Assembly (NCBI GenBank): GCA_963667625.1
Contig: OY763921.1
Location: 1,132,359-1,196,358 of the forward strand
Direction: 5' to 3'
DNA: 64,000 bases
Source: Thermodesulfobacteriota bacterium
GTDB taxonomy: Bacteria > Desulfobacterota_D > UBA1144 > Nemesobacterales > Nemesobacteraceae
In this document: piece by piece, positions 8,039 to 56,984 of the stretch
How the letters are laid out: each line of letters opens with the position of its first letter
Numbering within the stretch: position 1 is the stretch's first letter
Translations under genes and position numbers: made by a program
The notes under the pieces: generated by a model
What the model was told of the DNA's origin: nothing
Seen by the model: the letters and a program-made list of their open reading frames with translations, nothing else
The model's database searches: none

Positions 8039-8058
8039 GTCATATTCATCAAACAGAG

Positions 8059-8130
8059 AGCTGGCGAAGGGATTCGAACCCCCGACCGGCTGATTACAAA
8101 TCAGCTGCTCTACCCCTGAGCTACGCCAGC
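8059..8130 (-). tRNA. tRNA-Thr (anticodon TGT)
   Basis: Acceptor GCTGGCG/CGCCAGC, anticodon loop UUUGUAA, T-arm GGTTCGAATCC. Confidence 0.8.
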
Positions 8131-8305
8131 TTTTTATTTTTATGAATTCTGGATTCACTTGTCTGACCAACTTGGAATTGGGTAAAACAACCCTTTTTAC
8201 AGTAAACAATATATACTATTGCTATAAACGGAAATGTCAATAATCAACAAGCGAAAAAATAATTAAAAAGTTGCGGGAATCCAGGGTGAGAAAACCGACC
8301 GGGAA

Positions 8306-37229: not shown

Positions 37230-37781
37230 ATGTTTGATTTCCCGACACAAGTTTGTGAATTTCTTTTGACCAATCCGATTTTTCTTTTTGTTGGGCGCTG
37301 TCTGCTGGTTATTACGGTAGCTGGTTTCTTAATTACCGCTGTATCTTGGGCTTTTGGCCTAGCAACTCCCATTTGGCGATTGGGTCTAGGTTTGCGGAGG
37401 AGGAAAATAGCTATAGCTTCTGATGCTGATAGTTTTAGCAGTTTGAAAGCTGATTTGACGGCAACTCGTATTTTTCGAGAAAAAAATATCAAACATATAA
37501 CGAAAGACCACTTAGCAACGGTTAAGAATCATTCCTTGATTATTGTTCATTATAATTCTTTTTGTGCCGAAGAGATTAAACAAATGCTCAATAGCAAAGA
37601 AAGTATTAGTGGTATGATTTTTTACTTTCCAGAATTTGATCCTGCATCAGGAAACAGAATCCCAAATGAGATGATTCAGGAAATAGGGAAAAGAGAAAAC
37701 ACGACGGTCGTAAATTTCAGAGGACGGTTGCTTAACGATATCATCAACACTATAATCACTACGAGTTATCAGAAAAAATAA
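37230..37781 (+). CDS. Small membrane protein (two predicted N-terminal TM helices plus a ~120-aa cytoplasmic alpha/beta domain). Candidate effector or sensor for the downstream CD-NTase.
   Basis: 183 aa. Hydrophobic segments LTNPIFLFVGRCLLVITVAGFLITAVSWAFGLA. No recognisable catalytic motif. First gene of a three-gene CD-NTase operon in an AT-rich island. Confidence 0.5.
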   Translation: MFDFPTQVCEFLLTNPIFLFVGRCLLVITVAGFLITAVSWAFGLATPIWRLGLGLRRRKIAIASDADSFSSLKADLTATRIFREKNIKHITKDHLATVKNHSLIIVHYNSFCAEEIKQMLNSKESISGMIFYFPEFDPASGNRIPNEMIQEIGKRENTTVVNFRGRLLNDIINTIITTSYQKK

Positions 37782-37805
37782 CCTAAACACAAAGCTTCAG
37801 AGAAT

Positions 37806-38785
37806 ATGCCCGCAGATTATCTCCTAAAAAGGGCGAGGAAGGGGATTTCGACGAGAGGGGTTTCATTGCGGATGTATATGAGTCTTTTACCAATCTGCTT
37901 GGAGAAAGCAAATGTATTCAGGTCGGATCATATCCTCGTTATACTGCAATTACGCCTGTTCACGATCTGGACATTCTGTATGTCTTGGGCAACTGGCATA
38001 GTACTCCCGACCACGACCCGTCCGTTGTATTATCTTGGTTAGAAAACGAGATAATTAGAAACTACGAGAATCCTACTTCCTACAGAATAGATGTCTCCCA
38101 GCAAACGCATTCTATAACGGTTGCTTATCTTCTGAACGGCAAAGAAGTTTTTTCAGTAGACATAGTCCCTGCCTACGCTTTTTCAAAAAATGAATTCAGG
38201 GATGATGTTTATATGGTTCCGGAAATCCTGAGAAAAAAACATGGCAAAGACAGGACGGAGCATTACCAGCGAATTGCCATGGAACGCCGGGCGGCGCAAT
38301 GGATTTTATCGGACCCTCTCGGTTACATACGGATTGCCTCTCGAGTTGATCGGATAACCGGAGGAGAGTTTCGAAAAACCACCAAAATCATAAAAAAATG
38401 GAAAAACAACTTGGCGGAAGCCGACAGCAGCCTGAAACTAAAATCTTTTCACCTTGAGCAGGTTGTTACGGGGTACTTTCAAGCCCAGAACTCTTTGGAG
38501 ATATTTGATGCCATTTTCAAATTTTTTGTCGAACTGCCGGAAATACTGGAAAATCCGAATCAGATAGAAGACCGGGCCAATAAAGACAAGTTCATAGATG
38601 ACTATCTTGCTGAGTTCTCGGATTACCAGAAAGCAAAAATCAGATCTGCCAGAGATGGTTTTCTGGTTAGGCTGGAAAATTTTAAAGAGAGAAACTCGGT
38701 TGATGAATTATTGAAGATCTGGTTTTATCCCAGAAAACCTCACGAACAGTTTCTTTTCGATTTCAAGAAAAAAAATGCTGACTGA
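37806..38785 (+). CDS. cGAS/DncV-like nucleotidyltransferase (CD-NTase). The reading frame is broken near the 5' end: the ATG at 37806 is in one frame and the catalytic body in another, joined only if the A5 run at 37826-37830 is read as A6.
   Basis: The frame encoding GSYPRYTAITPVHDLDILYV (GS motif plus first two acidic residues), FSVDIVPAY (third acidic residue) and IIKKWKNN...LKSFHLEQVV has no ATG, GTG or TTG between the upstream stop (37784) and the GS motif. The ATG at 37806 is in the other frame. Restoring one A gives MPADYLLKKGEEGDFDERGFIADVYESF... Confidence 0.7.
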
Positions 38786-39131
38786 CGACAACTTCACATT
38801 CAGGGTGGACGGGTTTGTTGAGCCCTTGTCTGGATATCGCCACGGCTGGATCATGGAAACTCCTCATTTGAGAAAAGGGTTGACTCGTTGGCCGGGGCAA
38901 GAAAGAAGCATCAAATTTTCAGTCCAGAGAAACAACACTCCGGCAACGGAATACCTATGGAAAGTTAGAAACAGCGATGACTGCGCTGAACCAAGGGGTG
39001 AAATAACACGCAACCAGACGGCAAACAATCCGGAGAAGACAGCATATCCGGGCGATCACTATGTTGAATGTTACGCGATCAGGGGAGATGAATGCATCGC
39101 TCGTTCCAGGGTGAACGTCAAAATCGTTTAG
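38775..39131 (+). CDS. Hypothetical 118-aa protein translationally coupled to the CD-NTase (start overlaps the CD-NTase stop)
   Basis: The ATG at 38775 overlaps the TGA at 38783-38785. No TM segment. No motif I recognise. Confidence 0.45.
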   Translation: MLTDDNFTFRVDGFVEPLSGYRHGWIMETPHLRKGLTRWPGQERSIKFSVQRNNTPATEYLWKVRNSDDCAEPRGEITRNQTANNPEKTAYPGDHYVECYAIRGDECIARSRVNVKIV

Positions 39132-39239: not shown

Positions 39240-39962
39240 TTACAGCCACTTTGCGTATTCCTGCAAGTCTATCATCGGTACCGTAGCTTTGCTCTGGAGT
39301 CTGGAAATGAGATAAAAAAGAAACATCGCTACGGCTTTGTCGGTATTGTGGAATTTGTAATCTTCTGATTCTCTCTGGTAGTGGAAATAACCGTGAGAGG
39401 CAATACATCCGAAATCCAGTGCGCCATTGTCCGCATTCTTGGAATTCATGTGTTTTTCGATCAGGCTGGCGGGGTCAGACTTCCATCCGTTTTCAAGAGT
39501 CAGGATTCCTCCCAGAATGCGGGCCGGTTCCTTTTTGCTGAAAGTGCCTCCCGCGTGAGGTATCGGCAGACTGGTTCTGTACAGTCGTCGAACGCTGGCG
39601 ACTTTCTTCTGGGCATACTTCATATTTTTTGCATTGACTGTTTGTCTGGTCTCAAACACTGCGTATATGCTTTCCGCAGGAATGATTAATTCATCCTTAA
39701 ACTTAAAAATTAGCGGAGAATACTGCCGGTCGAATATTACCACGTCAATCTGTTCGCTGAAATCCCCCTTGCTGTCAACTATGTGGGCTTTTTCTGTCTT
39801 GTAGCGTTTGGGCAAATATTTCTTGAGCAGGTCAATCCATACTTTTTCGCTGGCGTCCCCTTTTGTCCCGGGATGCTGCAGTGTCTCCCGCGCCGACTGC
39901 AGACTGCCTTGTATGTCGTCGTGCATACTCGACAGGATTCTGCTCAATGACCATTTCGTCAT
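39240..39962 (-). CDS. Type III CBASS effector, NucC-like restriction-endonuclease-fold nuclease (putative)
   Basis: ~240 aa from the Met (MTKWSL...) at 39962, which overlaps the upstream AAA+ stop (TAATG-type coupling). IDVVIFD acidic motif with an Asp at position 73 from that start. It is the fourth gene of a CD-NTase/HORMA/TRIP13 operon. The ORF-track N-terminal extension is rejected because it overlaps the AAA+ gene by 176 nt. Confidence 0.55.
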   Translation of the reverse strand: MTKWSLSRILSSMHDDIQGSLQSARETLQHPGTKGDASEKVWIDLLKKYLPKRYKTEKAHIVDSKGDFSEQIDVVIFDRQYSPLIFKFKDELIIPAESIYAVFETRQTVNAKNMKYAQKKVASVRRLYRTSLPIPHAGGTFSKKEPARILGGILTLENGWKSDPASLIEKHMNSKNADNGALDFGCIASHGYFHYQRESEDYKFHNTDKAVAMFLFYLISRLQSKATVPMIDLQEYAKWL

Positions 39963-39963
39963 T

Positions 39964-40896
39964 TTAATCCTCTTTGAATGGCGGAGTCGGCAGCATTTCC
40001 CGTGCGATCTCAAGCGCCCTTTCTGCCTCGACCGGTTTTCCCGGGTACGCGTCCAGAACGATGGAAGGCAGCAGTCGTTGCGTAAGGTCAGAAAAAGTAA
40101 ACCCGCAATCACGGTCATCCAAAGGACCGGTTGCGGCAACCAGTTCGTTTATTCGTTCATCCGAAAACCCGAGTCCTCCAAGATATTTCCGGAGCACGTG
40201 TTGGCGCTGCTCGTCGCCTGGACGTCTGAAGGGAAGTATGTCCGCGGCGCGCCTTTTCACTGCGGGGTCAAGAGATCCTAAGCGGTTCGTGCACATGATA
40301 ACCGCGGCGGGGACTTTCGCATTGGCGATTCGGTCAATCCCCCTGATGAATGCGTTGACGCCTGCACGGTCCTCATGGTGCATCTGCGCGGCTTCGCGGG
40401 ATTGAGCTAATGCATCTGCCTCGTCTACAAACAGAATAAGCGCACCTCTGTTTTTATCCCCAAGGCTTTTCAGCTTTTCGGCTTCGGCTAGCACATAATC
40501 AAAAGCGCCTGAGAGAAGGCGCGTCATTTCTCCGACCCTGCCCTGCCCGCGACTGGAAAGACTTAGAGGCAACAGGGTGATCTCTATATTTTCCTGTCGG
40601 GCGACGGCATCTCCTATTCCTTCTCCGAGTTCCGTTTTTCCCGATCCTACATCACCGGCAAGTATAACCAAAGGGGGCCTCCGCAGGACTATATTCACTA
40701 TAGCGGTTTGTTTTGGATAATGTCTGTCCACCCACCTCTTCAGACCTGCAGGGTTGACAAGCGTAGCCAGGATTTTAATCAAGCGTGTTTTGTGGTCGTC
40801 CAGACCGACAAGACCGTGCAGACGTTCCAGCGCGTCAGAGTTAGGGTAATTGATCCTGCGTTCAAACAGATCATCCGGGTTAATAGCGTTGCTCAT
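39964..40896 (-). CDS. TRIP13/Pch2-like AAA+ ATPase (CBASS Cap6)
   Basis: 310 aa. Walker A GDVGSGKT, Walker B ILFVDEAD, sensor/Arg-finger region. Between the HORMA-sized gene and the effector. Confidence 0.7.
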   Translation of the reverse strand: MSNAINPDDLFERRINYPNSDALERLHGLVGLDDHKTRLIKILATLVNPAGLKRWVDRHYPKQTAIVNIVLRRPPLVILAGDVGSGKTELGEGIGDAVARQENIEITLLPLSLSSRGQGRVGEMTRLLSGAFDYVLAEAEKLKSLGDKNRGALILFVDEADALAQSREAAQMHHEDRAGVNAFIRGIDRIANAKVPAAVIMCTNRLGSLDPAVKRRAADILPFRRPGDEQRQHVLRKYLGGLGFSDERINELVAATGPLDDRDCGFTFSDLTQRLLPSIVLDAYPGKPVEAERALEIAREMLPTPPFKED

Positions 40897-41411
40897 TGGA
40901 AGTTCACGAGGCTAGCGCGGTTAAGGGCGCGGCCGCCAGCGGAATAGGTTTTGTCATAACTCAGATATCCGTTTCTGGCCGGTTCGAGAGCGTGTGACCT
41001 CTTTACGGGAATCAGAGCTTCAAGTGCGTCCTGCTGGATTTTCGTCAGTTGGTACCAACCCGGACCGTAAACTAAATAGCTACCGAAACTTGCTCTGGAG
41101 ATATTCGCACCGGGATAAATACGGCCTGGGTCATTATCGTCTGCAGAAGCTCCTTCCAGATCCCGGGCTGTGTAGATGATCATAGGTTCTATCCACATAC
41201 CATTGCGCCGGAAGCCATATGTAACAGTTCCGAGACATCCGTATCGTAGCAATATTCTCAATTCCTCTTCAAACTCCGCAATACGCGCATCACTGGGCGC
41301 ATCGTAGAAACGCTGCATGCGTTTCAAGTCCGCAGCCACCTTAGCCGATATGTGCCTTGCGTGCGTGTAGGTGAATGTTGTTGTTTCTGTGGTGGTAAAA
41401 CTTGTGCTCAC
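40893..41411 (-). CDS. HORMA-domain protein (CBASS Cap7), putative
   Basis: 172 aa with no enzymatic motifs. Size and position between CD-NTase and AAA+ ATPase, with a 4-nt overlap, match type III CBASS architecture. Confidence 0.55.
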   Translation of the reverse strand: MSTSFTTTETTTFTYTHARHISAKVAADLKRMQRFYDAPSDARIAEFEEELRILLRYGCLGTVTYGFRRNGMWIEPMIIYTARDLEGASADDNDPGRIYPGANISRASFGSYLVYGPGWYQLTKIQQDALEALIPVKRSHALEPARNGYLSYDKTYSAGGRALNRASLVNFQ

Positions 41412-41421
41412 GATTTCCTCC

Positions 41422-42387
41422 TCATACTGAAAATGACGGTCCGAATATTTTTTGCCAGTAATAAACGGTTTCTCCCTTAGTCGGTGCGGCGAGTGCCGCG
41501 TCTATAGCGTCTCCCGCATCCAGAGCGGCATCAAAAATCGCGTTGGCCTGGATATCTGTATACAGATTGCCAACATTGTTGTCGGGGTTCACAGGGTCGA
41601 TAATCTGAACCGGTTCCGTTAGAGTTCCGACTTCATCTGGATTGTAGTAGTCGTCGAAAACAATGCGTTCACGCATCCGAGTTCTTCCTATATATGTAAA
41701 GAAATGCTGCAGAGCCTCGGGATAATCCGAAAAATCCAAGGCTGCATCGCAGAGGTGAGACAGTACCATCTCCACCATAAAGGATTTGAAGCGAAATCCT
41801 TCATGCTGCCTTTTCATGTTTCTTACCCAGAATTTTGCCAGTCGGACTACTTGCGCAAAATGTTTTTCCTGCGCTTGCTTGCGTCTGCGTATAAACTCCA
41901 GATGAAGCGGGATGCTGGTTTTGAGAAACGAACCGTCATCCTGATTGACCAAGTTTCCGTACCATTGAGGGTCTCCGTCGTAAAGAATCGGGACAACATC
42001 AATGTCCAGACCCGAACCGCTGAACGAAACTGTCACGCTGTAGGTTTGGGGTTTGATCTGTTCTTCGGTGAAATTGGGAAAAGCTTTGCGCAGACGCTCT
42101 ACAAGATATTCCAGCAGGTCCGAAACATCCTGTGGAGTATCTGCTCCGCTTATATAGCACGCCATGTCTATATCGTTCAGGGAGCGAAGCGCAGTACCTT
42201 TGGCCAAACTGCCGGAAAGCAAAATCTTTTTCAGGGAGAAATCGGGGTGTTCGTCCAGATAACTCTCCAACCGTTCGCGTAGTCTGCGCGCTTGAGCACG
42301 GTACTTGTTGGCCTTGTCTCTCGGCAGGTTTACTTTATCCTCAGCAAAGCGAACAATTTCTCCATGATCTATATGGTCACGAGACAT
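41422..42387 (-). CDS. cGAS/DncV-like nucleotidyltransferase (CD-NTase) of a type III CBASS
   Basis: 321 aa. GSLAKGTALRSLNDIDMA (GS motif plus DxD), LDIDVVPI (third acidic residue), RLAKFWVRN...FKSFMVEMV. Confidence 0.85.
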   Translation of the reverse strand: MSRDHIDHGEIVRFAEDKVNLPRDKANKYRAQARRLRERLESYLDEHPDFSLKKILLSGSLAKGTALRSLNDIDMACYISGADTPQDVSDLLEYLVERLRKAFPNFTEEQIKPQTYSVTVSFSGSGLDIDVVPILYDGDPQWYGNLVNQDDGSFLKTSIPLHLEFIRRRKQAQEKHFAQVVRLAKFWVRNMKRQHEGFRFKSFMVEMVLSHLCDAALDFSDYPEALQHFFTYIGRTRMRERIVFDDYYNPDEVGTLTEPVQIIDPVNPDNNVGNLYTDIQANAIFDAALDAGDAIDAALAAPTKGETVYYWQKIFGPSFSV

Positions 42388-42464: not shown

Positions 42465-43544
42465 CGTGCTTTCAAGTTTGAAACGCAACAGGTGGATCAG
42501 CACCGAAGAGTACCTGATTCGGGGTTTTGAAGCCAAGGCATTGCCTCGGTCTGTTGTTCAATTTGTCCATAACTCTGTCTACATCTTCCTGGGTCAGTTT
42601 CCCGAAGTCCATTCCCTTTGGGAAGTACTGCCTTATAAGTCCGTTTGCGTTTTCACAGGACCCCCGCTCCCACGAGTGGTAAGGATGGGCGAAGTACCAC
42701 CGCGCCGAGAGCTCGCTTGATAGTTCCTCATGCAACGCGAACTCCTTTCCGTTATCGCACGTCACAGTCTCGAAGCGCTTGCGCATGGGTGTCGCCGCCT
42801 CGAGTATGGCCCGGGAGACGGAGGAAGCTTTTTTGTCCTCAGAGACCAGAATCATGCAATAGCGGGACTTGCGCTCGGCGAGGGTTACGAGCACCTTGCC
42901 TTTTTTTCTTGAGCCAAGCACAGTGTCGGCTTCCCAGTCTCCTGAGCGCACACGCTTATCCACCACTTCGGGGCGCTGGTCTATACAGACACGGTTTTTT
43001 ATATGTCCCCTGCGCGAGGGCGCTCCGTAGCGCTTTCTGCGCTTCTTGCGGCAGCGAAGGTGCGTGTGGAGATCTCCTCCATTAATCTTGTCTTCCCTTA
43101 CGTGATTGTAGATGCTCTGGTGGCTTACGCTGAGTCTTTCGTTTCGGGCAAGCCAGCAGCTTATCTGCTGGGGACTCCAGTCTTCTCCGAGCAGCAGCTC
43201 CACGCGAATCCAGGTTTGTTGGGGGATACGGTTTCCACAACAATTGCGCCTGCCCTCCGCAAGCCTCTGAGCCTGCTTGGGACGGTAACCCCGTTTGCCG
43301 CGGTTGCGGTGAAGTTCCCTGCTTATGGTGGATTTGTGCACGCCCAGGTGCCTTGCGGTCTGGGTCTGGTTGTGCCCTGCTTTGCGCAGGATGTAAATCT
43401 GGTATCTTTGTTCCAGGGTAAGTTGCTTTGGTTTTCTCATTCAAACGCTCCTTTTGATTTGGTCGTTAAAAGAGGGTTGCGAAGATTATCGCAACTTGCC
43501 CTTTTAATTTACATCAAAAGTTGCGTTTCAAACTTGAAAGCACG
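42465..43544. mobile_element. IS30-family insertion sequence (~1.08 kb) with 25-bp perfect terminal inverted repeats
   Basis: Left inverted repeat CGTGCTTTCAAGTTTGAAACGCAAC at 42465-42489. Its exact reverse complement GTTGCGTTTCAAACTTGAAAGCACG is at 43520-43544. A single transposase ORF lies between them. Confidence 0.85.
42472..43440 (-). CDS. IS30-family transposase
   Basis: 322 aa with an N-terminal HTH (LTLEQRYQIYILRKAGHNQTQTARHLGVHKSTISRELHRN) and a DDE core (WEADTV...D...E). Confidence 0.9.
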   Translation of the reverse strand: MRKPKQLTLEQRYQIYILRKAGHNQTQTARHLGVHKSTISRELHRNRGKRGYRPKQAQRLAEGRRNCCGNRIPQQTWIRVELLLGEDWSPQQISCWLARNERLSVSHQSIYNHVREDKINGGDLHTHLRCRKKRRKRYGAPSRRGHIKNRVCIDQRPEVVDKRVRSGDWEADTVLGSRKKGKVLVTLAERKSRYCMILVSEDKKASSVSRAILEAATPMRKRFETVTCDNGKEFALHEELSSELSARWYFAHPYHSWERGSCENANGLIRQYFPKGMDFGKLTQEDVDRVMDKLNNRPRQCLGFKTPNQVLFGADPPVAFQT

Positions 43545-44494: not shown

Positions 44495-45718
44495 TCATCT
44501 AAGACTGAGAGAACGAACATCTCTTATGAAACTCTCAAATGATTGCAAGTGAGGTCGAACGTTTTTAGGAAAAGAAGAAATTATTGGCGTAGGTACAACG
44601 AGTTGAACTTTGGCTTTTACCATTTCCGCGAATTGATTTTCAGACACGCCTTCTTGAAGGGTTAGCAAATGCTTGATTTTAATTCTGTCGGCTTCGTTAA
44701 GAATTTGACGCCATCTGTCTTTGCAGGTCGTTTTGACTGCCAGCATTTTCAGCCGATTAGATAAATGGCTCTTCGATTTATAAGCCTTTTCTGAAGGAAA
44801 AAGGAAATCAGGTCTTTTCCCTTTCTCCGATTCAGGTTGGTGAGTAAAGTCCTCATTTTCAATTAATCCTTCTTCCAGAAAAATACGCTTGGCATGTAAT
44901 TCAAGCGATCGACCTGAGCGCGCTTTCCTTCTCTGTAAAATTGACTGAGCCTTTAAAATGAAATCATCCAAATTTGCAAATCCCTTTTTAATGAAAGGAA
45001 GCTCAACAGCTTCTTCCACACTTCTAAAAACCTCGAATTCATATTGTCTTCTTTTAACGAGCCTAGAATCAGGCTTAATCCCAAGTGCACCTTTGATATC
45101 GATAGTTTTTTGAATGATTTCCATACCAGTTGGAAATTTCTCCAACCATTGTTCGGGGATTTCATCCGGGTATAGCCAACAAGAGCTTCTATCTGTTGGT
45201 CTTTGTTTTTCTACTTCATCCGAGGACCACACCTTTCCTGCTCCGGGTTCGACGGGGCCAATTCGGTTCTCAATAAAATCTTCTTCAGTTTCATGTCGAC
45301 AAACCCAGACATGGCAAGAGACAGCTTCTCTATTACTATCCAACTCAAAAGCAAAAACGCTCAAGGCTCCGGTACTCTCAGGATCAAGAAGAGGTGAATC
45401 CTGTCCTCCAAAATTTGTCAGTCGAGCTTCATCCCTACCTCTTTTAGGATTTCCATGAAATTTGTTGTTATACCATATTGCTCTAATTCTCCGACAATCA
45501 GTGTGAGAATCCACATACAAATCAAACCAGAGATCAGGGTTTTTTATTTCCTTTCTGTTCAGTAACGGGAAAATATCAAACAAAAAGTCTTTTGGAATAT
45601 AGGGTCCTGCCTGATGGGAACCATTAGCCAGAGTGTCATTTCCAGAAAGACGCTTTACATACCAGATGAAATCCGAGTTAGAAACCTCAGCTACCCAATC
45701 ACTCAACTCCATCTGCAT
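44495..45718 (-). CDS. Type IIE restriction endonuclease, EcoRII family (likely CCWGG-specific)
   Basis: 407 aa, alignable by eye along its length to EcoRII: YVKRLSGNDT..GSHQAG, IWVC..TEEDFIE, RMLAVKTTCKDRWRQILNEADRI, PDFLFPS. Confidence 0.9.
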   Translation of the reverse strand: MQMELSDWVAEVSNSDFIWYVKRLSGNDTLANGSHQAGPYIPKDFLFDIFPLLNRKEIKNPDLWFDLYVDSHTDCRRIRAIWYNNKFHGNPKRGRDEARLTNFGGQDSPLLDPESTGALSVFAFELDSNREAVSCHVWVCRHETEEDFIENRIGPVEPGAGKVWSSDEVEKQRPTDRSSCWLYPDEIPEQWLEKFPTGMEIIQKTIDIKGALGIKPDSRLVKRRQYEFEVFRSVEEAVELPFIKKGFANLDDFILKAQSILQRRKARSGRSLELHAKRIFLEEGLIENEDFTHQPESEKGKRPDFLFPSEKAYKSKSHLSNRLKMLAVKTTCKDRWRQILNEADRIKIKHLLTLQEGVSENQFAEMVKAKVQLVVPTPIISSFPKNVRPHLQSFESFIRDVRSLSLR

Positions 45719-46169
45719 CTTTACCCCTTATTTCGAAGAAAGGTGAGCGCCCTTTTAACCACGCAACACATTCATCAATAATTCTTTTTAAGTCTTTTTT
45801 GTGTTTGCCTTTTATAGCACACTCCCAAATAATTAAAACTCTCCAGCCTTTTTCAGATAACATTTGAATCGATTCTTCATCGTGGTATTTGTTTCGAGTT
45901 ATTTTCTGTTTCCAGAAATCAGGTCTGGTCTTAGGCCATTTAAATAAATGACAATTGTGGAGGTGCCAAAAACAACCATGTATAAAGACTACGGCCTTAA
46001 ACTTAGGAAAAACGATATCCGGCTTACCAGGAAGATCTCGGACGTGAAGCCTGTATCTGTATCCAAGTGCATGGATTGCCTTTCGAATAAAAAGTTCCGG
46101 TTTGGTGTTTTTACCTTTAATGCCGGACATCATCCGGCTTCTTTTCTCAGTCGATACTATATCAACCAA
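45699..46169 (-). CDS. vsr: Very-short-patch-repair endonuclease Vsr
   Basis: 156 aa with KPELFIRKAIHALGYRYRLH and FIHGCFWHLHNC. Overlaps the upstream C5-methyltransferase gene as dcm/vsr do in E. coli. Confidence 0.9.
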   Translation of the reverse strand: MVDIVSTEKRSRMMSGIKGKNTKPELFIRKAIHALGYRYRLHVRDLPGKPDIVFPKFKAVVFIHGCFWHLHNCHLFKWPKTRPDFWKQKITRNKYHDEESIQMLSEKGWRVLIIWECAIKGKHKKDLKRIIDECVAWLKGRSPFFEIRGKDADGVE

Positions 46170-47430
46170 CTGCTCTAAGTTCCCTTTGGTTGATTTGGAC
46201 TAATTGTTCTTCACTTTCAAGTATCCAAGGAACCATATGTCTTGCAATGGCCTCAACAACTGGAACAACAACTGCATTGCCAAACTGTTTGTAAGCTTGT
46301 ATATCAGAAACGGGGATAACAAACCGGCTTTCTGTGGGTTCATCAAATCCCATCAGTCGAGCACATTCCCTTGGAGTCAATCTACGAGGATTTCTTCTAC
46401 CATGTTGTTTTACCAGAATTTCGGAACCGTCTTTGTAATATCTTGCAGAAAGCGTTCTAGTAGTATCGTTATGGCCAACTAGACTGTAACCGAAGCCGTT
46501 ACCCTTTTTTCGATGCTTTTCTGCATAAGCCTGAAGATAATTCCAGAGTTTATCAGAAAGCGTATATTTAGGGAGAACCTTTCCTTCTCCATCAAGAAAC
46601 TTCCGGTTTTGCTCATTGAAAGTTTCAGAACCGTCTTCAGTATGAAGGATGTTGCCCAGCCTTGGAGTATCTATAGAATTAGGTTGGACAAAATTTTCAA
46701 AACTGAAATCGTTTTCTTCCAGAAAGCCAACTATGAAGATTCGTTCACGATGCTGTGGTACCCATGATTTAGCATCAATAACACGACAATGGACCTGGTA
46801 TCCCAATTCTTCTGTCAAAGTTCTATGGATAACCTTAAAAGTATTTCCTTTGTCATGACTAACCAAGTTTTTAACATTCTCAAGCAAGAACGTTTTTGGT
46901 TTGTGGTACTCAATGATTCGTGCTACATCAAAAAAGAGCGTGCCTTGTGCTTCGCATCGGAATCCGTGAGGACGATTGAGAGAATTTTTCTTTGATACTC
47001 CTGCAATGGAAAATGGTTGACACGGAAATCCAGCTAATAAGACATCATGCTTAGGAATGTCTTTAGCTTCTATTTGAGTGATGTCACCTACTACCTCATG
47101 GTCGCACAAATAATTGGCTTTATAGGTTTGTTGTGCATATTTGTCCCATTCACTAGTAAACACACATTTACCGCCAAGAGGTTCGAAGGCTCTCCTCAAA
47201 CCACCGATTCCAGCAAACAAATCAATAAATTTAAAGGCGGACTTTACAGGTGCATCATATGTTCTGGCAAGTTCCCTTAATACACGAATAGCTGCTTTTC
47301 TAGGTTTTGTTTCTCCTCGCTCCCATCGATACAAAGTCCTAGCAGAGAACCCTAATTCCTTGGCTAGTTCTTCGATTGACAATCCTGTTTTTTCTCTTAG
47401 GATTGAAAATTCATTGTTAGCATTCTGCAT
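46162..47430 (-). CDS. dcm: DNA cytosine-5 methyltransferase (Dcm/M.EcoRII-like) with N-terminal XRE-type HTH domain
   Basis: Motif I DLFAGIGG, motif IV GFPCQPFS, ENV motif. N-terminal LREKTGLSIEELAKELGFSARTLYRWERGE helix-turn-helix. Confidence 0.9.
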   Translation of the reverse strand: MQNANNEFSILREKTGLSIEELAKELGFSARTLYRWERGETKPRKAAIRVLRELARTYDAPVKSAFKFIDLFAGIGGLRRAFEPLGGKCVFTSEWDKYAQQTYKANYLCDHEVVGDITQIEAKDIPKHDVLLAGFPCQPFSIAGVSKKNSLNRPHGFRCEAQGTLFFDVARIIEYHKPKTFLLENVKNLVSHDKGNTFKVIHRTLTEELGYQVHCRVIDAKSWVPQHRERIFIVGFLEENDFSFENFVQPNSIDTPRLGNILHTEDGSETFNEQNRKFLDGEGKVLPKYTLSDKLWNYLQAYAEKHRKKGNGFGYSLVGHNDTTRTLSARYYKDGSEILVKQHGRRNPRRLTPRECARLMGFDEPTESRFVIPVSDIQAYKQFGNAVVVPVVEAIARHMVPWILESEEQLVQINQRELRAVG

Positions 47431-47631
47431 TTTCTATCCTAGAAGGGGAATTTCTCTGCCATTATGGCAAAATGATATCTTTTTTTCTTCCTAGTCACAA
47501 GAAAAACTTTCTATAGTAATATATGGGAATTGATAGACTTGATCGGAAGAATGCTCAAATTACTATATTCGGTTATTAAGAAGTGGACCATCAATTATAT
47601 ATGCTTTTAAAATACTTCAAGGTGATTCCAA

Positions 47632-50600
47632 ATGAATGAATCAGGAATACTCACCTATAAAGACAGAGAATCTTTACGACGAAGGATCAGGGAGTCTAAT
47701 TCAGACTCATCAATTTCAAATGAAAAACTGATCCTGCATCTGTCTTCTGTTCTACAAAACCAAGGGGTAGAAAGTGAAGAGGAAAAAATATTTCAAGAAT
47801 ACACTTTTGATCTGATAAATGTTTTGAGGACAGCAGACAACAAAGAAGCATCTGAAATAGCCCAAGCAGTTTTAAATTTTATTGCAACAAATTTCCAAGC
47901 GGATGCTGAAGAACGATGGAAATTGCCAGCGAAACAAAGAGTTTATATCACGAGTGTAGCGATTAAAGAGATCTCGGAAATCATTAATTTGCCTAAAGCC
48001 AATGAAATACATGGATTAACTGTAAAAGAAAGGGCTGAAGCGGAAAAACTATTGTTAAGGTTTGCATCAGTTTCGGACAGTGTTGATTTAAAAAATCGCA
48101 ATCATGCCAAAAATTTTATTGAATTGTATGACAGGGAAAAACAATCCCGTTTAATGACTAGGTACTTAAAAAACATAAAACTTCTTGTTAGAGCTTTAGA
48201 GAGTGGTGATTTAAATACAGAGGACAGAGCATGGGCTAGGGGTGCTTTGAGTTATATCAGACTTAACAGAGATGTTATACCTGATGAGTATGGATTGATT
48301 GGGGTGCTTGATGATATGTACATTGCAAATTTGGCTGTTGGTCTTATTCGGCCAAGTGCACCACCGCTAACAGAACTAGTACTGGAATTCAGAAAAATTT
48401 GGCCGATTTTAAATGGACTGATTTTTTCTGAGGACAAGTCAGAGTATAGGTATACAGATATTGCATCCATTAATTCGGCGTTGGTCTGCATGCCATTGAG
48501 GGGTGAGAATCAATTACGAACAGCTCTTGTGCTTCCGTTTTCTGGGTGTACACCCAACATTATCGCAATTGCCGCTGTCTTTGGTGCAATATCTGTTCTA
48601 GCTAAAAAGGTGAAAGATGGTCCCGATTTCAAGATTGGAGACTTGGTTCGGGTTGATAATACAGCTGTCGCAACATATGGCGGAATATATGTATTTGAAG
48701 GGAAAGAATATATACGGTTGAATCAAGTTACTAAAAAGGCCAGCGAGAAGCAACCGGAACAAACAGTGACGAATCTAATTCCGTTGCAAGACAGTGCAAG
48801 ACTATGCCCGGCGAAGGCAGGATCCAAAACGCAAGGTGAAATTCAAACGTACTTGAAGAGTACAGAAAGAGAGCTTTCGGCAATTGAAAATCTTTTACAT
48901 TTGCCTCATCCACTTCAGTTTCACAGTATTGATTCTCATATATGGTTAATCTCATCTGCTGACAGAATGCGTTCTTTAGCAAAAGACTTAAGGGTCCACG
49001 GCCAGCGCCTTATTGATGTTTTCCCGATGGGACATATTAAAAGGGATGGAACTTGTGAAGCTTGGAGTGCAAGATTTGGAGAATCCGAATGTGTTCTGAT
49101 AACCGTAACTGATCTAGATTTAGCAGCAGAAATTTTGGAAGAAACAGAAGGAACAGATAGAGATTTGGTGATAGCTGATCTGTCAGGACCGAACAGGAAT
49201 CGTATCTCTTCCCTTGAAAGGGTTTTTGATCTTGATCTAAATGTCCTTTGTATTGCAGAAGAACGAGATGAGGGCTTAATTTCTATTGTCGAGCAATATA
49301 ATCCTGACATATGGGAGTGGAGCGGGGAGGAAGTAAGTGAGATAGGAAAATTCCCGCAATCTCAATCTGACAGCACCCACCCATTTTACAAAAATGACGG
49401 TCGTTTGATAAGAGCGATTTCAGGAAATACCTCTACCAGAGCAGTTCAACTTGAGTCTCTTGAGTGGTGCCATGCAACAATTTCAGCTGCGACCAAGAAG
49501 GTTCCCCTGGAAACTGAAGATAAGACTTTAGAATTTCATGAAATATACAGAAAATTGTTTTCGATATTCCTTCGATTGACGAGGATGCCTTTCCAGGTTG
49601 ATCCTGAGTGGTTTGGAAATGATGAGAAAGTTCTTTCCACCTTGAAAGAGCAACTGGTTTCCAGTGTTTTTATGACAGAGGAAGAGAAAAAATCTCTAAC
49701 TGATATAAGTATGCTTATACACAAGGCGGGTCAAGCTCTGGTTAATGCAAACCCTAAATGGACTGAGATGTATGAAATACTGAAATCAAATCCCAAAGCA
49801 AAAGTATTAATTCATAATCCCGCTGTTATCCCTGATGAACTTCAAAGTGAAAAAAAATATATTCTGATGAAAGAAGCGTGTTCGACAGCATGTGAAATTT
49901 TGATTGTGCCTTACTGGCCGGGGAAAGACAAAAGTTGGAAGTTGTTGACCGAAGCTGACGTTAAAGAAATAGTTTTTTTATTGTATCCCTATGAGGCTGA
50001 TTGGTATAAGAGTTTTGTTCGCCATAGAGAGTTATCACGACGTAGTAGAACCGAAAGACGCAATAGTCAGGCGATATTTCCAAAAGTTGGAACTTGGCCG
50101 AAAAAAACAGTAATGGAAAAACTGAGTGACAACTTGAGCCAAACCCCACATGAACTAGATCTTGTGGAGCTGAACAATAGCTACAGAAGAACCCGGATTA
50201 TCAAATCAATTGAATCAATGGAAAAAGATGTATCTGTTGAAACCCGTTTAGTTGGTTTTAGCGGAGGTGGGCATGCATTCTTGTCGTCAGGATATGAGGC
50301 TAGACTAGCCACTTACTTACTTGAAAGTGAAGCACATGCAAATACTGAAAATATTACTATAAGTTCTGCTGTGCTGGATAATCTTAATATAGGTGACGTG
50401 CTCATATTTCTAAAGGGGTCTGACAAAGATGCCATAAGAAAAATAGCGGATGAAAACTTACCTGAAGGGATGAGGAATTTGGCCAAGCTCTGGCAAACAG
50501 CACTTAAAGGTTATGTGGAAAAAGAAAAAGTGTCATTGGAAGAATTGGTATCGCTATTGTCTCAACAAGGCTGTAGAAAACATAGGGCAACGGTTAAGAA

Positions 50601-50934
50601 TTGGCTTGAGAGTGAAAATATTATTGGACCACGTAATGCCCATAGAGGGGATCTTGAAGCTATTGTCAATGTTACTAATGATAGTACGTTGTCAACAAAT
50701 TTACCACAATGTCAGAATGCAATCACCGAGGTATGGGGACAGCATTTAAAAGCAGCAAAGTTGTTAGCTAAAAATCTATTGGAAAAGATCAGCAGCAATA
50801 CAAAATTTGATATAGACATCGAAGAGCCTGTAGAAGTAATCGATGGGATACTGCTGGCGAAAATCGAGTTTATCGAGTCAGAAACAGTACATATCCCTCG
50901 ATCGAAAATAAACCGATTACTGGAGGAACTCTAA
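47632..50934 (+). CDS. Large hypothetical protein (1100 aa), first gene of a helicase + DUF1998 module. No P-loop or nuclease motif found. N-terminal DUF1232/YkvA-like segment.
   Basis: A long uninterrupted ORF in an AT-rich island. DVIPDEYGLIGVLDDMYIANLAVG resembles the YkvA/DUF1232 motif. No GxxxxGK[ST] anywhere. Confidence 0.5.
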   Translation: MNESGILTYKDRESLRRRIRESNSDSSISNEKLILHLSSVLQNQGVESEEEKIFQEYTFDLINVLRTADNKEASEIAQAVLNFIATNFQADAEERWKLPAKQRVYITSVAIKEISEIINLPKANEIHGLTVKERAEAEKLLLRFASVSDSVDLKNRNHAKNFIELYDREKQSRLMTRYLKNIKLLVRALESGDLNTEDRAWARGALSYIRLNRDVIPDEYGLIGVLDDMYIANLAVGLIRPSAPPLTELVLEFRKIWPILNGLIFSEDKSEYRYTDIASINSALVCMPLRGENQLRTALVLPFSGCTPNIIAIAAVFGAISVLAKKVKDGPDFKIGDLVRVDNTAVATYGGIYVFEGKEYIRLNQVTKKASEKQPEQTVTNLIPLQDSARLCPAKAGSKTQGEIQTYLKSTERELSAIENLLHLPHPLQFHSIDSHIWLISSADRMRSLAKDLRVHGQRLIDVFPMGHIKRDGTCEAWSARFGESECVLITVTDLDLAAEILEETEGTDRDLVIADLSGPNRNRISSLERVFDLDLNVLCIAEERDEGLISIVEQYNPDIWEWSGEEVSEIGKFPQSQSDSTHPFYKNDGRLIRAISGNTSTRAVQLESLEWCHATISAATKKVPLETEDKTLEFHEIYRKLFSIFLRLTRMPFQVDPEWFGNDEKVLSTLKEQLVSSVFMTEEEKKSLTDISMLIHKAGQALVNANPKWTEMYEILKSNPKAKVLIHNPAVIPDELQSEKKYILMKEACSTACEILIVPYWPGKDKSWKLLTEADVKEIVFLLYPYEADWYKSFVRHRELSRRSRTERRNSQAIFPKVGTWPKKTVMEKLSDNLSQTPHELDLVELNNSYRRTRIIKSIESMEKDVSVETRLVGFSGGGHAFLSSGYEARLATYLLESEAHANTENITISSAVLDNLNIGDVLIFLKGSDKDAIRKIADENLPEGMRNLAKLWQTALKGYVEKEKVSLEELVSLLSQQGCRKHRATVKNWLESENIIGPRNAHRGDLEAIVNVTNDSTLSTNLPQCQNAITEVWGQHLKAAKLLAKNLLEKISSNTKFDIDIEEPVEVIDGILLAKIEFIESETVHIPRSKINRLLEEL

Positions 50935-50992
50935 TCTAAGGATGATCCCCAAACAATTTACCCTGACATTAGACGATGAAGGAGACTAGTTC

Positions 50993-52909
50993 GTGAAGGA
51001 CAAAAAAGAAAAAACACTCTCACCTGTGGAGGAATTTCGTGCGGTGTTGATTGACCAGTTACATAAGGAACTGGTAGGCCCCAACCCCCTTCTGGGCGAC
51101 TTGGAAGAGATATTGGATGAATCTCCTAGGCAAAGATATTGTGCGGGCATACTGTTTCCTTCAAATGTTCTAAATAAGGAAACAGAAGATTATGACGAGA
51201 ATGGTAAGGAGATCAGGGAGATGGAAGGACATGAAATTGATCTTGCCAAAAAAGAAGTTCGTCACTCCAAGGCCGGAGAAGCAGAGACTCTGGATGAGTA
51301 TGATGACACAATCACAATGGCAAACACCTATATGCCTTCTGCAATGGGAATTTCCTTTTTATGCGATAATTCGCCTAGAGGTCTTAAAGTGGTGACGAGT
51401 GCTGCTATCTATAAAACAGCAAAGCGTAAAGTTGAAGAGCGCGAATTTAACACATGGATCCGTAATCCTCTGGATTTGCCGGTATTGACGATTAGTCTTG
51501 AGGTTGATAGCAAAGATATAAGAATCGTTGAGCAAAAACTGAGAGGAAACCTTAAAATTAAAGCTGTCATCAGACGCAGAAATGATGACTCACGGCTCGT
51601 GACAGTCTCTATGTATAACACGAAAGTTAATTCGAGCTCTGGTCCTGTCTCTGTTACAGATTGTTTTTTTCAGTCCAGTTTTAAAGTTTTCTCACCTGAT
51701 GGTTCAACTATTTTCAGAGCCTATCAAGAAATGGCAACAGAATCTGAAGATCCCGAAGAAACAAGCCTTCGTTTACTTTATAGAAACCGACTTTCCTTTG
51801 GGGTCGGGCATGGTTGTGCTGTCAAGTGGTCCAAGGCACAGGGTGGCAAGGTAGACTGTGTTGAAACAGACTCACTTCCTTTTCAAAAAATTCCACCTGT
51901 CGAACCCCGGGGTGGCCAAGGCGAAGAATTAAACATGGTTAGCTTGGCTGGAGGTCTGGATGGTAAGAAACAAGAAATAGTCCCAGACATATTACAGGCG
52001 CTTGTGAACGACTATTCGTCGTGGATAGAGGGCATTTTAACAGAAGCAGCTAGGTTTCAATCTCCCCTGAAGGAAGCAGCCGACAGACATATAGATCTAT
52101 GCCAGAAAGCCCGCGACAGAATACAAGACGGAATTGCCGTTCTGAAATCTAACCCGGTTGCGCTGAGTGCATTTTGTATGGCAAACAAAGCGATGCTTAT
52201 GCAACAGTATCACAACAAAAGAAGCTCTAGGTCTACCAATGAAGGGTGGTTAGATATCAGTAAGGACTATAACCCTGTAGAACCTTGGATGGGACGATGG
52301 CGTACTTTTCAGTTGGCATTTATTCTCATGAATCTTGGCACGGTAACACCCGATGCTAAAGGCAAATTTTCACCAGAACGTAATCTGGTGGATCTGATCT
52401 GGTTCCCGACAGGTGGCGGTAAAACAGAAGCTTACTTAGGTTTGGCGGCATACACCATATTTCTTAGGCGACTTTTACAACCCAAGAATGCGGGTTGCAC
52501 TGTATTGATGCGTTACACACTTAGATTGTTAACAGCTCAGCAGTTTCAAAGAGCGGCTGCTTTGATCTGCGCTTGCGAATCTTTAAGGTGTAAATCACCG
52601 GAATTGCTGGGTGAAGAAGTTATTTCAATTGGTCTATGGGTAGGTCAGTCTTTAACACCCAATACACGTAAAGAAGCTATAGGAGCACTAAATGAATTAG
52701 TAAAAAATCCTCATGGCGGTGAAAACAAATTTCAGTTATTAAAATGTCCATGGTGTGGTACGAGGCTGGATGAAGAAGGCAAGCTGGGTTACAGAGTAAC
52801 GGGAAAAACACCAAAAAGAATACTGTTTGTTTGTCCTGAAGATCGTTATAGCGCGACAATCAAGATTGAACTGTTGCGACAATCAAGATTGAACTCTGGG
52901 TGTCGCTGA
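50993..52909 (+). pseudogene. SF2 helicase (DrmA-like), N-terminal fragment, interrupted by an IS21-family insertion after helicase motifs I/Ia
   Basis: A large N-terminal domain followed by motif I WFPTGGGKTEAYLG and motif Ia LRLLTAQQF. The ORF then reads into the insertion-sequence terminal repeat and stops. Confidence 0.7.
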
Positions 52910-52941
52910 TTGTGAGACGATACCGGCATATCTGACAGATA

Positions 52942-53796
52942 TCAATCTCCAGTTTTCGAGGTCAAACCCTTCGAGTTTTTCTCGGTAGCGTATTTCGCGG
53001 GTCTGCCCCGTTTTTTCTTCACCTCCTCCTTCTTTTTCTCCATCGCATGACGCAACCTGTAGCTCTCCACGTTCATTTCAAGGATTACGCAGTGATGCAC
53101 AAGGCGATCCACTGCCGCCACAGCCGTATTTTCGTCAGGAAATACGTTTTTCCATTCCTCAAAGGGCTGATTCGCCGTAATAAGCAGTGACCTGCTCTCA
53201 TAACGGTTCGATATAAGCTCAAACAGCACCCTGGTTTCATCCCGATCTTTGCGTACGTACGCAAGATCATCGAGAATCAGCAGGTCATAACGGTTGAGTC
53301 GCTCAAGCATACTCTCCAGACGAAGCTCTCTATGGGCCATCTGAAGTCTCTGCACAAGGTCCGTCGTGCGGGTGAACATAACTCTTTTGCCCTGTTCCAC
53401 CAAGGCAAGCCCTATGGCCGAGGCAAGATGACTCTTCCCCACCCCCGGAGGTCCGAAGATTATCACGTTGTGACCTCCTTTGAGCCATGAATCGGTTGAA
53501 GCAAGCGCTCTTACCCTTGCCATGGATATAGTGGGAACCACAGAGAAGTCGAAGTTATCAAGACTCTTGCCGGCTATGAGATGAGCTTCGCTCAGGTGGC
53601 GCTGTATTCTCCTGCGCCCTCGCTCCGCGAGTTCGAGCTCGGCAAGCGCCCACAGCAGTCTTCCCGCCGGCCACCCCTCCCTGTCCGCCCGCTCGGCGAA
53701 CTGTTCCCAGGTGTTCTTTATGGCAGGCATTCTGAGTTCGGAGAACATCAGGGTAAGTCCCAGAGAATCTATTTTTGTGTTTTCTTTCGTGTTCAT
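52942..53796 (-). CDS. istB: IS21-family helper ATPase IstB
   Basis: 284 aa, Walker A GPPGVGKSHLA, DnaC-like AAA+. Confidence 0.9.
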   Translation of the reverse strand: MNTKENTKIDSLGLTLMFSELRMPAIKNTWEQFAERADREGWPAGRLLWALAELELAERGRRRIQRHLSEAHLIAGKSLDNFDFSVVPTISMARVRALASTDSWLKGGHNVIIFGPPGVGKSHLASAIGLALVEQGKRVMFTRTTDLVQRLQMAHRELRLESMLERLNRYDLLILDDLAYVRKDRDETRVLFELISNRYESRSLLITANQPFEEWKNVFPDENTAVAAVDRLVHHCVILEMNVESYRLRHAMEKKKEEVKKKRGRPAKYATEKNSKGLTSKTGD

Positions 53797-53822
53797 TGTT
53801 TTTCTCCTTTTTCTTCAATAAG

Positions 53823-55316
53823 TCAAAATAACGGCGTGTAGCTTGAAAGATCTCCCGCCTGGACGTCCACTTCCCTCATCGGCCCCGCTTTCATTGTGAA
53901 ACGCTCCTTGAGTCCGTCCATATCGGGCAGTTCTCCAGAGTTTACCGTGTCCCTTATCGCAAGCGCCAACTGGTCTTCACAGCTCTGCTCATGGGCCAGG
54001 GCAAGCAGTTTTACCGTGATTCTGCACGCCTCGCGCCTTCCAAGAAGTGAAAGAGCGAGCTCAAAACACTTTTTGTATTCCTCCCTTGGAAACAGTTCGT
54101 TGCGGTACACAAGATTCATAAGCGCTCCCGGCTTTTTCTTCAGAGAGTGAACCACATGATGGTAATTCACCTCGTAAACCGTTTTATCGCCGTCTTTTCG
54201 CCTTCTGGGAAGCGTCAGCTGATGACGGCCCCCGAAGTGCAGCTCTATGTTCGCATCATATACACGGGCCTCAAGACGGTGCCCTATGAGGCGGGAGGGA
54301 ACGGTATAGAACACTCCTTTGAGCAGAAAGCCGCCTGATGAGGTTACTGTCACGCTGTGGCGCTCATGCCAGGGCGCGGAACCCGCGGGAAGGGACCTCA
54401 GGGTTTTTCTCTCCGCTTCTATGCGCTCCGTTCTGCGGGCATTTATGTTCGAGGTCACCTCGGCAACAAAGTCGCGGTACTCTTCGATTTCCGCAAAGTC
54501 CCGGGACCCCCGAAGCTCTAAAGCGTCAGCTATTTCCCTTTTGAGATGACCGTGAGCCCCCTCTATGGCCCCGTTCTCATGGGCAACGCCCTTGTTGTTT
54601 CTCGTAGCTTCCATTCCGTAATGAGCGCAAAGATCCTCATATCTTCTGGTCATGTCTTTTTTCTGATCCTTGCTGAGGTTCTTGAATGCCGCGGAGAGTG
54701 AATCGGTGCGGTTCTCCGCGGGAGTTCCGCCGAGAGTCCGCAATGCCGCTTCAAGCCCCTGGGAGAAGGCGACGAAGCTTTCTCCTCCCTCAACTACGCT
54801 TGCGTGGACAAAGCCCGACCACGGGAGTCTGAAGTGAAAGAGCATATGATCAAACTGTCTTCTGGCGATTGTGACCTCAGCATCTCTCATCCTGGTAAAA
54901 TCGGAGATGCCCATATCTCCGGCTTTCTTGTTCTGGCGGAATATGACCTCTTTATCGGGGCCGTGTTCGGTTCTCCAGGTCCTTATACGCCTCTCAAGGG
55001 TGCGGCGAACCCCTGAGTCAAGCTCCGGATTGTTGCGAAGAAGCTCGTAAAAGACCGTAGAGGGCCTTATATCGGGACAATTACGAAGAATGGGGAGTAC
55101 CTGGGAGTCCCAGATGCCTTCAAGAGGGTCTGGGCGACGCCTCCCTCGGGGCTTTCTCTCCTTTTTCTGCTCTGTTCCAAGTTCTTTTTTGATCTGAAAG
55201 CCTGATGTGCGACCGAAGCCCGACTTGGCCGCAGCCGTTTCTGCTGAGAGTTTTTCTTCGGTGATGAGTTTCATGAATTTCCTCCTTTGTTCATCGGTTA
55301 TGTGTTGACCCGGCAT
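53823..55316 (-). CDS. istA: IS21-family transposase IstA
   Basis: 497 aa with an N-terminal HTH and a DDE integrase core. Confidence 0.9.
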   Translation of the reverse strand: MPGQHITDEQRRKFMKLITEEKLSAETAAAKSGFGRTSGFQIKKELGTEQKKERKPRGRRRPDPLEGIWDSQVLPILRNCPDIRPSTVFYELLRNNPELDSGVRRTLERRIRTWRTEHGPDKEVIFRQNKKAGDMGISDFTRMRDAEVTIARRQFDHMLFHFRLPWSGFVHASVVEGGESFVAFSQGLEAALRTLGGTPAENRTDSLSAAFKNLSKDQKKDMTRRYEDLCAHYGMEATRNNKGVAHENGAIEGAHGHLKREIADALELRGSRDFAEIEEYRDFVAEVTSNINARRTERIEAERKTLRSLPAGSAPWHERHSVTVTSSGGFLLKGVFYTVPSRLIGHRLEARVYDANIELHFGGRHQLTLPRRRKDGDKTVYEVNYHHVVHSLKKKPGALMNLVYRNELFPREEYKKCFELALSLLGRREACRITVKLLALAHEQSCEDQLALAIRDTVNSGELPDMDGLKERFTMKAGPMREVDVQAGDLSSYTPLF

Positions 55317-55487
55317 TGAAACCTCCTGTTCAAAGAAAATGAACAGAAGGCTTTACCAAATCAGCGACGAATACTGAAGGAAATTCTTCCCCCGGGATGG
55401 TGTCTGAAACTCCAGTCGGGCTACGCCCTCCTTCCGTTTCAGACACCATCCTCAGAGTTCAATCTTGATTGTCGCGCTAGTTCGAAG

Positions 55488-56972: not shown

Positions 56973-56984
56973 AGAGGAAGTCTG

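Follow-up and report, generated by a model that had tools for sequence, protein, structure and literature searches.

Gene content of the locus and its surroundings

The locus at positions 37230 to 39131 of the window (the whole 64,000-nucleotide stretch of DNA that was analyzed) carries the gene of a small membrane protein, followed on the same strand by a CD-NTase (cyclase) gene that is present in pieces. The first-pass annotation had described it as a noncanonical three-gene CD-NTase operon, and the open reading frames (ORFs) underlying that description, at 37230-37781 (183 aa), 37985-38785 (266 aa from a TTG), and 38775-39131 (118 aa), were all recovered. A CBASS module with a genuine CD-NTase was confirmed by matches to Pfam SMODS and to a PADLOC cyclase model, with the small membrane protein as the partner (effector) of the CD-NTase; as had been reported, the locus holds no SAVED, STING, TIR, patatin, HNH, or Cap2/Cap3 partner. 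The features of the locus and of the adjacent operon are as follows.

37230..37781, plus strand: effector gene, 183 aa; a transmembrane (TM) helix region at the N terminus, then a receiver (REC)/flavodoxin-like domain at the C terminus; CBASS "1TM" family, fitting the description of Cam2
37768..37770, plus strand: start-codon position of the cyclase, 14 nt ahead of the point at which the effector stop codon ends; ATC here and in the subclade, ATG elsewhere in the family
37768..37827, plus strand: cyclase piece 1, ten genuine N-terminal codons (IRKNNLNTKL), then out-of-frame codons and TAA, from three-frame translation against L002, L068, and L071
37796..37797, plus strand: frameshift 1, one extra T (AAGCT[T]CAGAG), not in L001-L005, L068, L071, or L072
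37798..38785, plus strand: cyclase piece 2, SMODS/CD-NTase catalytic core, with no canonical start before TTG 37985
37829..37846, plus strand: near-tandem duplication of 18 nt that keeps the frame and adds GEEGDF; absent from L001-L003, present in the near-identical L071 and L072
37925-37930, 37964-37972, and 38159-38161, plus strand: catalytic residues GS, DLD, and third Asp (SVDIV), respectively, aligned with homologs
38768..38775, plus strand: frameshift 2, an A7 run lengthened to A8, a window-specific 1-nt insertion in the DNA alignment; A7 in relatives
38775..39131, plus strand: cyclase piece 3, AGS-C (Ig-like) C-terminal domain (Pfam PF18134, PADLOC PDLC00785)
39240..42387, minus strand: type III CBASS, convergent and apparently intact, with full-length PADLOC and Pfam matches
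39240-39962, minus strand: NucC (PADLOC/Pfam), 108 nt downstream of the type I module on the opposite strand
39964-40896, minus strand: TRIP13 (PADLOC/Pfam)
40893-41411, minus strand: HORMA (PADLOC/Pfam)
41422-42387, minus strand: CdnC (PADLOC/Pfam)

The convergence on a type III CBASS noted earlier thus stands, with CdnC, HORMA, TRIP13, and NucC read from 42387 to 39240 on the minus strand. HORMA and TRIP13 were assigned to this CdnC operon, and the type I operon itself is free of Cap2/Cap3 and HORMA/TRIP13. The double type I and type III cassette recurs in a different context in L068 (90.7% nucleotide identity over 5.3 kb), and the pairing recurs in part in L002 and L003, where NucC also lies downstream (as a remnant of the system in L003). 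Compared with the syntenic locus L001, the window carries the type III CBASS and an IS30 transposase as an insertion after the cyclase, as well as an inserted block of ∼14 kb (EcoRII-like enzyme, Vsr, Dcm, and DISARM) between ResA and CcmH; PNPase is also encoded on this 1.86-Mb contig. The DISARM gene drmA of the same island is split by an IS21 element. With its frameshifted cyclase, IS21-split DISARM helicase, and mobile double-CBASS cassette, the locus illustrates rapid turnover of a defense island.

The cyclase gene and its two frameshifts

Profile searches placed the core and the 118-aa ORF on one and the same cyclase model. The core reaches 28.6 bits against SMODS (Pfam cutoff, 26.5) and matches PADLOC PDLC00785 at model positions 23-326 of 443 (4.3e-126), while the 118-aa ORF matches AGS_C (PF18134; 2.4e-15, 57 bits) and positions 330-441 of the same 443-position model (4.9e-38). 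The normal product of gene 2 is one protein of ∼447 aa with a CD-NTase (SMODS) core and a C-terminal Ig-like AGS-C domain, a domain carried by about 40% of type I CBASS cyclases (bioRxiv 10.1101/2023.05.21.541620). A search with the core joined to the 118-aa ORF returned 652 proteins, and the best 120 of these 652 are nearly all single chains of 430 to 450 aa with SMODS and AGS_C at 99 to 100% query coverage. The junction (...EQFLFDFxKKMLTDD...) is unbroken in 13/13 aligned homologs, in which the "start" methionine of the 118-aa ORF is a conserved internal residue (KKMLTDD). Removing one A from the A8 run restores FDFKKKMLTDD, which agrees with the junction of all 13; SMODS and AGS-C are then on one polypeptide, which they are not as encoded. 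In L068, where the intact effector-cyclase pair occupies 7265-9146, the cyclase ORF runs uninterrupted from its ATC for 447 codons. On these alignments, the apparent three genes are an artifact of two 1-base insertions that break one cyclase gene.

The reading frames of the window were resolved by three-frame translation. The CD-NTase frame is open from 37787 yet has no ATG, GTG, or TTG before 37985, and the GS and DxD codons sit in a 66-codon stretch devoid of all three, so that the 266-aa ORF starting at TTG 37985 is without these residues. The ATG at 37806 is in a different frame from the CD-NTase core, and translation from the family start position at 37768 gives, as encoded, a 19-codon stub ending at 37827. 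The core is left without a start and the AGS-C domain in a third frame; read from its frames as they stand, the window cannot make a catalytically complete cyclase. The GS, DLD, and third Asp and the downstream KKWKNN...LKSFHLEQ segment (from alignment with homologs) are all present, as the first reading of the sequence had it, but they do not form the one clean ORF that it implied, the frame being start-less and interrupted by the extra T. An intact, expressible cyclase, which belongs to the definition of a type I CBASS, is missing from the window owing to the two private +1 insertions. We also considered repairing the N terminus through ATG 37806 with a slip in the A5 run at 37826-30; this was rejected, as homologs put the start of the frame at 37768 and the lesion is the extra T.

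In the DNA alignment of the window with its close relatives L001-L003 (82 to 86% nucleotide identity), three indels in all fall within positions 37230-39131, each of them specific to the window. The contigs L071 and L072, which come from other samples, are 99.8% identical to the window over 1.2 to 1.5 kb and do not have the extra T; both stop short of the A8 tract. L073 was discarded as a witness for the A8 site because it is an unrelated 119-aa cyclase remnant. After the two inserted bases are removed, the repaired cyclase ORF contains no stops, and its dN/dS against relatives (0.18 to 0.25) is the same as that between intact relatives. This normal ratio gives no sign of long-term decay in the cyclase gene, and the lack of the extra T in two nearly identical contigs points to recent damage or, with lower probability, to an error of assembly.

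A profile search of PDB with the cyclase gave only distant CdnD and CdnC matches (best solved relative, CdnD 6p8u, 4.6e-10), and for this reason no CD-NTase clade (A-H) was assigned. Promoter and terminator scans of the locus scored no better than on shuffled sequence.

The effector family and the overlapping junction

The 183-aa protein matches PADLOC PDLC00664 ("1TM" CBASS effector) over its full length (9.3e-51) and also the type III CRISPR-associated membrane models C3a59 (8.3e-34) and Mem_04 of PADLOC. Searches of Pfam (E ≤ 1) and NCBIfam and a profile search of PDB sequences found no match. SLATT, Cap15, and Cap14 were considered as identities of the effector and set aside, given the lack of a Pfam match at E ≤ 1 and a model that is alpha/beta with no beta-barrel. 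In the AlphaFold2 model (pLDDT, 80.6), helices at residues 4-14, 16-41, and 45-53 precede an alpha/beta domain of five strands, the predicted fold of which is receiver-like; the soluble domain comprises about residues 55-183. Hydropathy analysis displays one long hydrophobic stretch with a clear TM segment at about residues 24-46, and the membrane part resembles a single well-defined TM helix with a short helix at the N terminus, not two clean TM helices. Of the initial description as a two-TM protein with a small alpha/beta domain, the hydrophobic N-terminal helix region and the alpha/beta domain were therefore retained, and the second TM helix was not. The phospho-acceptor position of the receiver fold, at the end of strand 3, is occupied by a conserved HYxS and no Asp; the invariant residues of the family cluster in a C-terminal NFRGRLLND motif, among them R164, G165, R166, and D170, and further include Y108, S110, and K123. 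The family comprises 278 clusters at 50% identity among 1.84 billion representatives. PADLOC's own label for it is "1TM."

Members of this family also occur in CRISPR loci. A tblastn search identified two homologs on plasmids of Gloeothece verrucosa PCC 7822 (34 to 35% identity, full length, same C-terminal motif), each with cas10/cmr2 on one side and cas1-cas2 on the other in a type III-B locus. They match C3a59 at 3e-65 and 4e-69 and the CBASS 1TM model at 1e-45 and 6e-57. The CBASS "1TM" effectors and the CRISPR-linked TM-REC proteins, which match C3a59 and fit the description of Cam2, are thereby shown to be one family. Such sharing strengthens the idea of the receiver-like domain as a sensor of cyclic oligonucleotides, and it offers many CBASS orthologs for testing this idea.

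An effector-family ORF, detected with an effector HMM, lies upstream of the cyclase relative on the same strand in 42 of the 58 genome loci that encode one, nearly always ending right at the start of the cyclase. Among the other 16 loci, four (L045, L047, L049, and L060) are cut by a contig edge, most of the rest are distant partial matches to the cyclase, and L020 (Gracilibacteria) may use an alternative genetic code, which would break ORF finding under table 11. The hosts of these loci include Patescibacteria, Flavobacteriia, Alphaproteobacteria, Acidobacteriota, and others, and the pair stands alone in L001 and L004-L009. From the cyclase ATG to the last base of the effector stop codon the distance is exactly 14 nt in 33/51 junctions (YATGAAAAAAGATAA), and in most of the others the ATG overlaps or abuts the end of the effector gene at another offset. 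This linkage and the conserved overlapping junction make effector-first order the norm of the family, and the same order of effector and then cyclase is found in a published lactococcal type I CBASS (PMC11381338). The membrane-protein-first arrangement had been regarded as unusual for CBASS, a view that these data contradict.

At the start-codon position of the cyclase, the window, L001-L005, and L068, among which dS reaches about 1, have ATC; in the survey of 51 junctions, L001-L005 are the only loci with ATC there. The first canonical in-frame start of this subclade is 35 to 210 nt further downstream, and gene callers consequently truncate its proteins to 366 to 430 aa. The 66 start-less codons downstream of the ATC have a dN/dS of 0.12 to 0.23 and are therefore translated, presumably by AUC initiation or by termination-reinitiation coupling. 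With ATC at the conserved start position of a cyclase under purifying selection, this diverged subclade provides a natural example of a potentially toxic defense gene whose initiation is coupled or does not use AUG.

Weighing of the readings, proposed pathway, and related systems

In our view, the locus is very probably a canonical type I CBASS of two genes, the cyclase gene having been inactivated only very recently in this strain. That the CD-NTase is a shorter protein, joined in a genuine three-gene operon by two novel partners (a stand-alone 118-aa protein and the membrane protein), is hardly conceivable, and we regard this reading as refuted. The ATG at 38775, 8 nt ahead of the TGA of the cyclase frame, does produce the overlap that the first-pass annotation had observed, and this superficially resembles translational coupling; but the 118-aa ORF is the AGS-C part of the cyclase and no separate gene, the split coincides with a 1-nt insertion private to the window, the junction-spanning homologs among those listed are fused, the methionine of that ATG is an internal residue in them, and the 266-aa ORF is deprived of the GS and DxD motifs. 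A comparably faint probability attaches to regulated recoding or phase variation, by which slippage on the A-tract and on the A6 tract at the effector stop would keep the cyclase, or an effector-cyclase fusion, at a low and switchable level. The second break does fall within the A8 tract, and throughout the subclade the overlap contains an A6 run (AGCTATCAGAAAAAATAA) and no canonical start. Against this, relatives read through both broken sites in a single frame, the first break lies outside any slippery sequence, the model calls for two separate recoding events, and the A6 run simply codes for a conserved Lys-Lys that is also present in family members starting with ATG.

One or both insertions could also be errors of sequencing or assembly; if both are, the organism would have an intact, functional two-gene type I CBASS beside its type III system. 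An A8 homopolymer is a classic spot for sequencing errors, the extra T is missing from the almost identical L071 and L072 of other samples, the repaired ORF is clean with a normal dN/dS, and the 1.86-Mb contig suggests a long-read assembly. We nevertheless regard this explanation as unlikely. Ten syntenic housekeeping genes gave single-frame, full-length matches between L001 and the window, and all other defense genes checked gave full-length matches to their models. By our own tally, two frameshifts occur in 1.36 kb here versus none in ∼21 kb of coding sequence (the ten syntenic genes, the four type III CBASS genes, IS30, EcoRII, Vsr, Dcm, DrmE, and DrmB). Intact ORFs of at least 250 aa accommodate eight further homopolymers of 8 nt and about 90 of 6 to 7 nt, the first insertion (37796/7) is not within a long homopolymer, and a second defense gene of the same island, drmA, is broken too.

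Under the preferred reading of a recently inactivated type I CBASS, the result serves mostly to dismiss a false lead, the supposedly novel CBASS of three genes being a type I system of two genes, already catalogued, with its cyclase in pieces. The two flanking proteins had been proposed as previously undescribed components, and this novelty is lost for both, the 183-aa protein matching the catalogued PDLC00664 and the 118-aa protein being AGS-C; what survives of the proposal is that the literature yielded no experimental characterization of the effector family. Three points keep some interest: the putative TM-REC effector, the change of the start from ATG to ATC in this subclade, and the cross-talk that may exist with the NucC-type CBASS next door.

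From what is known of CBASS, infection would induce the cyclase to make a cyclic oligonucleotide, with the AGS-C domain probably tuning its sensing of phage. The receiver-like domain of the effector would bind this molecule, and the effector, as a small inner-membrane protein with that domain in the cytosol, may then oligomerize and damage or depolarize the membrane, thereby aborting the infection. The signal is most likely an oligoadenylate such as cA3, as judged from the effector homologs that serve Cas10 in III-B loci and agree with what is described for Cam2. In this strain, no cyclase of its own is left to the pathway; the effector gene and the neighboring type III CBASS are intact. Since the effector family serves Cas10 and the operon lies tail to tail with the CdnC-HORMA-TRIP13-NucC system (in the window, L068, and L002, with a remnant in L003), the TM-REC effector and NucC may both read cA3. 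The effector would then be no orphan and the double cassette one functional unit, a suggestion that we offer as speculative and rather improbable. If it were true, the unit would combine two sensors (the AGS-C cyclase and the HORMA-controlled CdnC) with two killers (of membrane and of DNA); the TM-REC effector would still be useful here, driven by the CdnC of the neighbor despite the broken cyclase; and the change of ATG to ATC in the subclade would keep the second cyclase at very low dosage.

The locus belongs to an already catalogued class of system (AGS-C cyclase plus "1TM" effector), here as a degraded copy. The classification made by Millman et al. in 2020 reportedly includes type I CBASS of this kind, in which the CD-NTase is fused to AGS-C and the effector is a transmembrane protein. 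Like the type I CBASS defined by the PDLC00785 cyclase and PDLC00664 effector, the module consists of two genes only; as in the AGS-C class, a SMODS domain with GS/DxD/D is joined to a C-terminal AGS-C domain and a small membrane effector is immediately upstream; and Cap2/3 or HORMA/TRIP13 genes are likewise not part of the operon. Richmond-Buccola et al. tested operons that bear AGS-C, such as PpCdnB06-Cap15 of clade B, and the lactococcal example is a SLATT plus NTase/AGS-C system (PMC11381338). In contrast to the Cap15 beta-barrel, SLATT, or SAVED sensors, the effector here has a receiver-like alpha/beta domain, and unlike in other type I AGS-C systems, the cyclase is split by two frameshifts and, across its subclade, reads ATC where the start ATG would be.

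The closest parallel to the effector is Cam2 (CRISPR-associated membrane protein 2), an ancillary TM-REC effector of type III CRISPR that is predicted to be activated by cA3, a response that is only predicted in its source (Hoikkala, Graham and White 2024; PMC11229360). Both proteins have an N-terminal TM helix region and a C-terminal receiver-like fold, both have HYxS or another residue but not a conserved phospho-acceptor Asp where strand 3 ends (HYxS in the effector), homologs of the effector are found in the two Gloeothece III-B loci, and both co-occur with NucC. The likeness rests on the published description of Cam2, with PADLOC C3a59 (8.3e-34), the model that covers the CRISPR-linked relatives found here, as the only sequence proxy. 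Cam2 sits in type III CRISPR loci, whereas this copy of the effector is paired with a CD-NTase and not with Cas10. NucC-type effectors, which are activated by cA3, are likewise common to CD-NTase and Cas10 signaling, but NucC is a soluble nuclease that has no relation in sequence or fold to the 183-aa membrane protein.

Start codon and integrity of the cyclase gene

The ATG that conservedly starts the CD-NTase (cyclase) gene of the type I CBASS module is replaced by ATC throughout the sub-clade, at 37768-37770 in the window and at the equivalent junction in the six contigs of close relatives (L001 to L005 and L068). This start position overlaps the stop of the upstream gene for the 183-aa membrane effector by 14 nt. 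The next 12 to 70 codons after the ATC hold no canonical start, so that gene callers predict shortened proteins of 366 to 430 aa. The start-less codons of the sub-clade cyclases have dN/dS values of 0.12 to 0.23, which indicates purifying selection. An imperfect tandem duplication of 18 nt (37829-37846), which adds GEEGDF to the cyclase's N-terminal helix region, is common to the window and two contigs 99.8% identical to it (L071 and L072) and is missing in all other relatives.

In the Brevundimonas sp. MAG contig L050 (approximately 3974-4183), the conserved effector-cyclase overlap ATG is out of frame with the long cyclase ORF, which suggests another frameshifted copy of the same cyclase family. 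Contig L073 (1671-2030) encodes 119 aa from the interior of a related cyclase, with 89% nucleotide identity to window positions 38356-38685, adjoining a DrmB-like gene; this fragment is another decayed remnant of a type I CBASS module.

Insertions around the module and recurrence of the double cassette

Relative to the syntenic contig L001, the window carries two insertions, and the region containing both is a hot spot for defence islands.

Insertions relative to L001
39240-43440, insertion 1: type III CBASS and an IS30 transposase (42472-43440)
44495-58832, insertion 2 (~14 kb, between ResA and CcmH): EcoRII-like enzyme, Vsr, Dcm, and DISARM

An IS21 element interrupts drmA, the DISARM helicase gene, whose two halves together with the element span 50993-56972; DrmE and DrmB on either side look intact.

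DISARM locus and IS21 element
47632-50934, DrmE, looks intact
50993-52909, drmA N-half, model positions 2-630 of 1165
52942-53796, minus, istB (IS21)
53823-55316, minus, istA (IS21)
55488-56972, drmA C-half, model positions 723-1161 of 1165
56985-58832, DrmB, looks intact

The convergent double cassette, type I CBASS with CdnC-HORMA-TRIP13-NucC, recurs outside the window in L068 (7265-12403) with 90.7% identity across 5.3 kb, in a genomic context unlike that of the window (TraG, GIY-YIG, and YaaD), and in part in L002 (7242-7817) and L003 (5333-5740). In L003, a NucC remnant is all that is left of the second operon.

Effector homologs in type III-B CRISPR loci

Homologs of the 183-aa effector, annotated as "hypothetical protein," lie within two type III-B CRISPR loci on plasmids of Gloeothece verrucosa PCC 7822 (L069, 4965-5498; L070, 4911-5420). 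Three small conserved unknown genes (about 97 to 180 aa) separate the homolog from cas2 in both loci, and in L070 a TIR-domain gene separates it from cas10.
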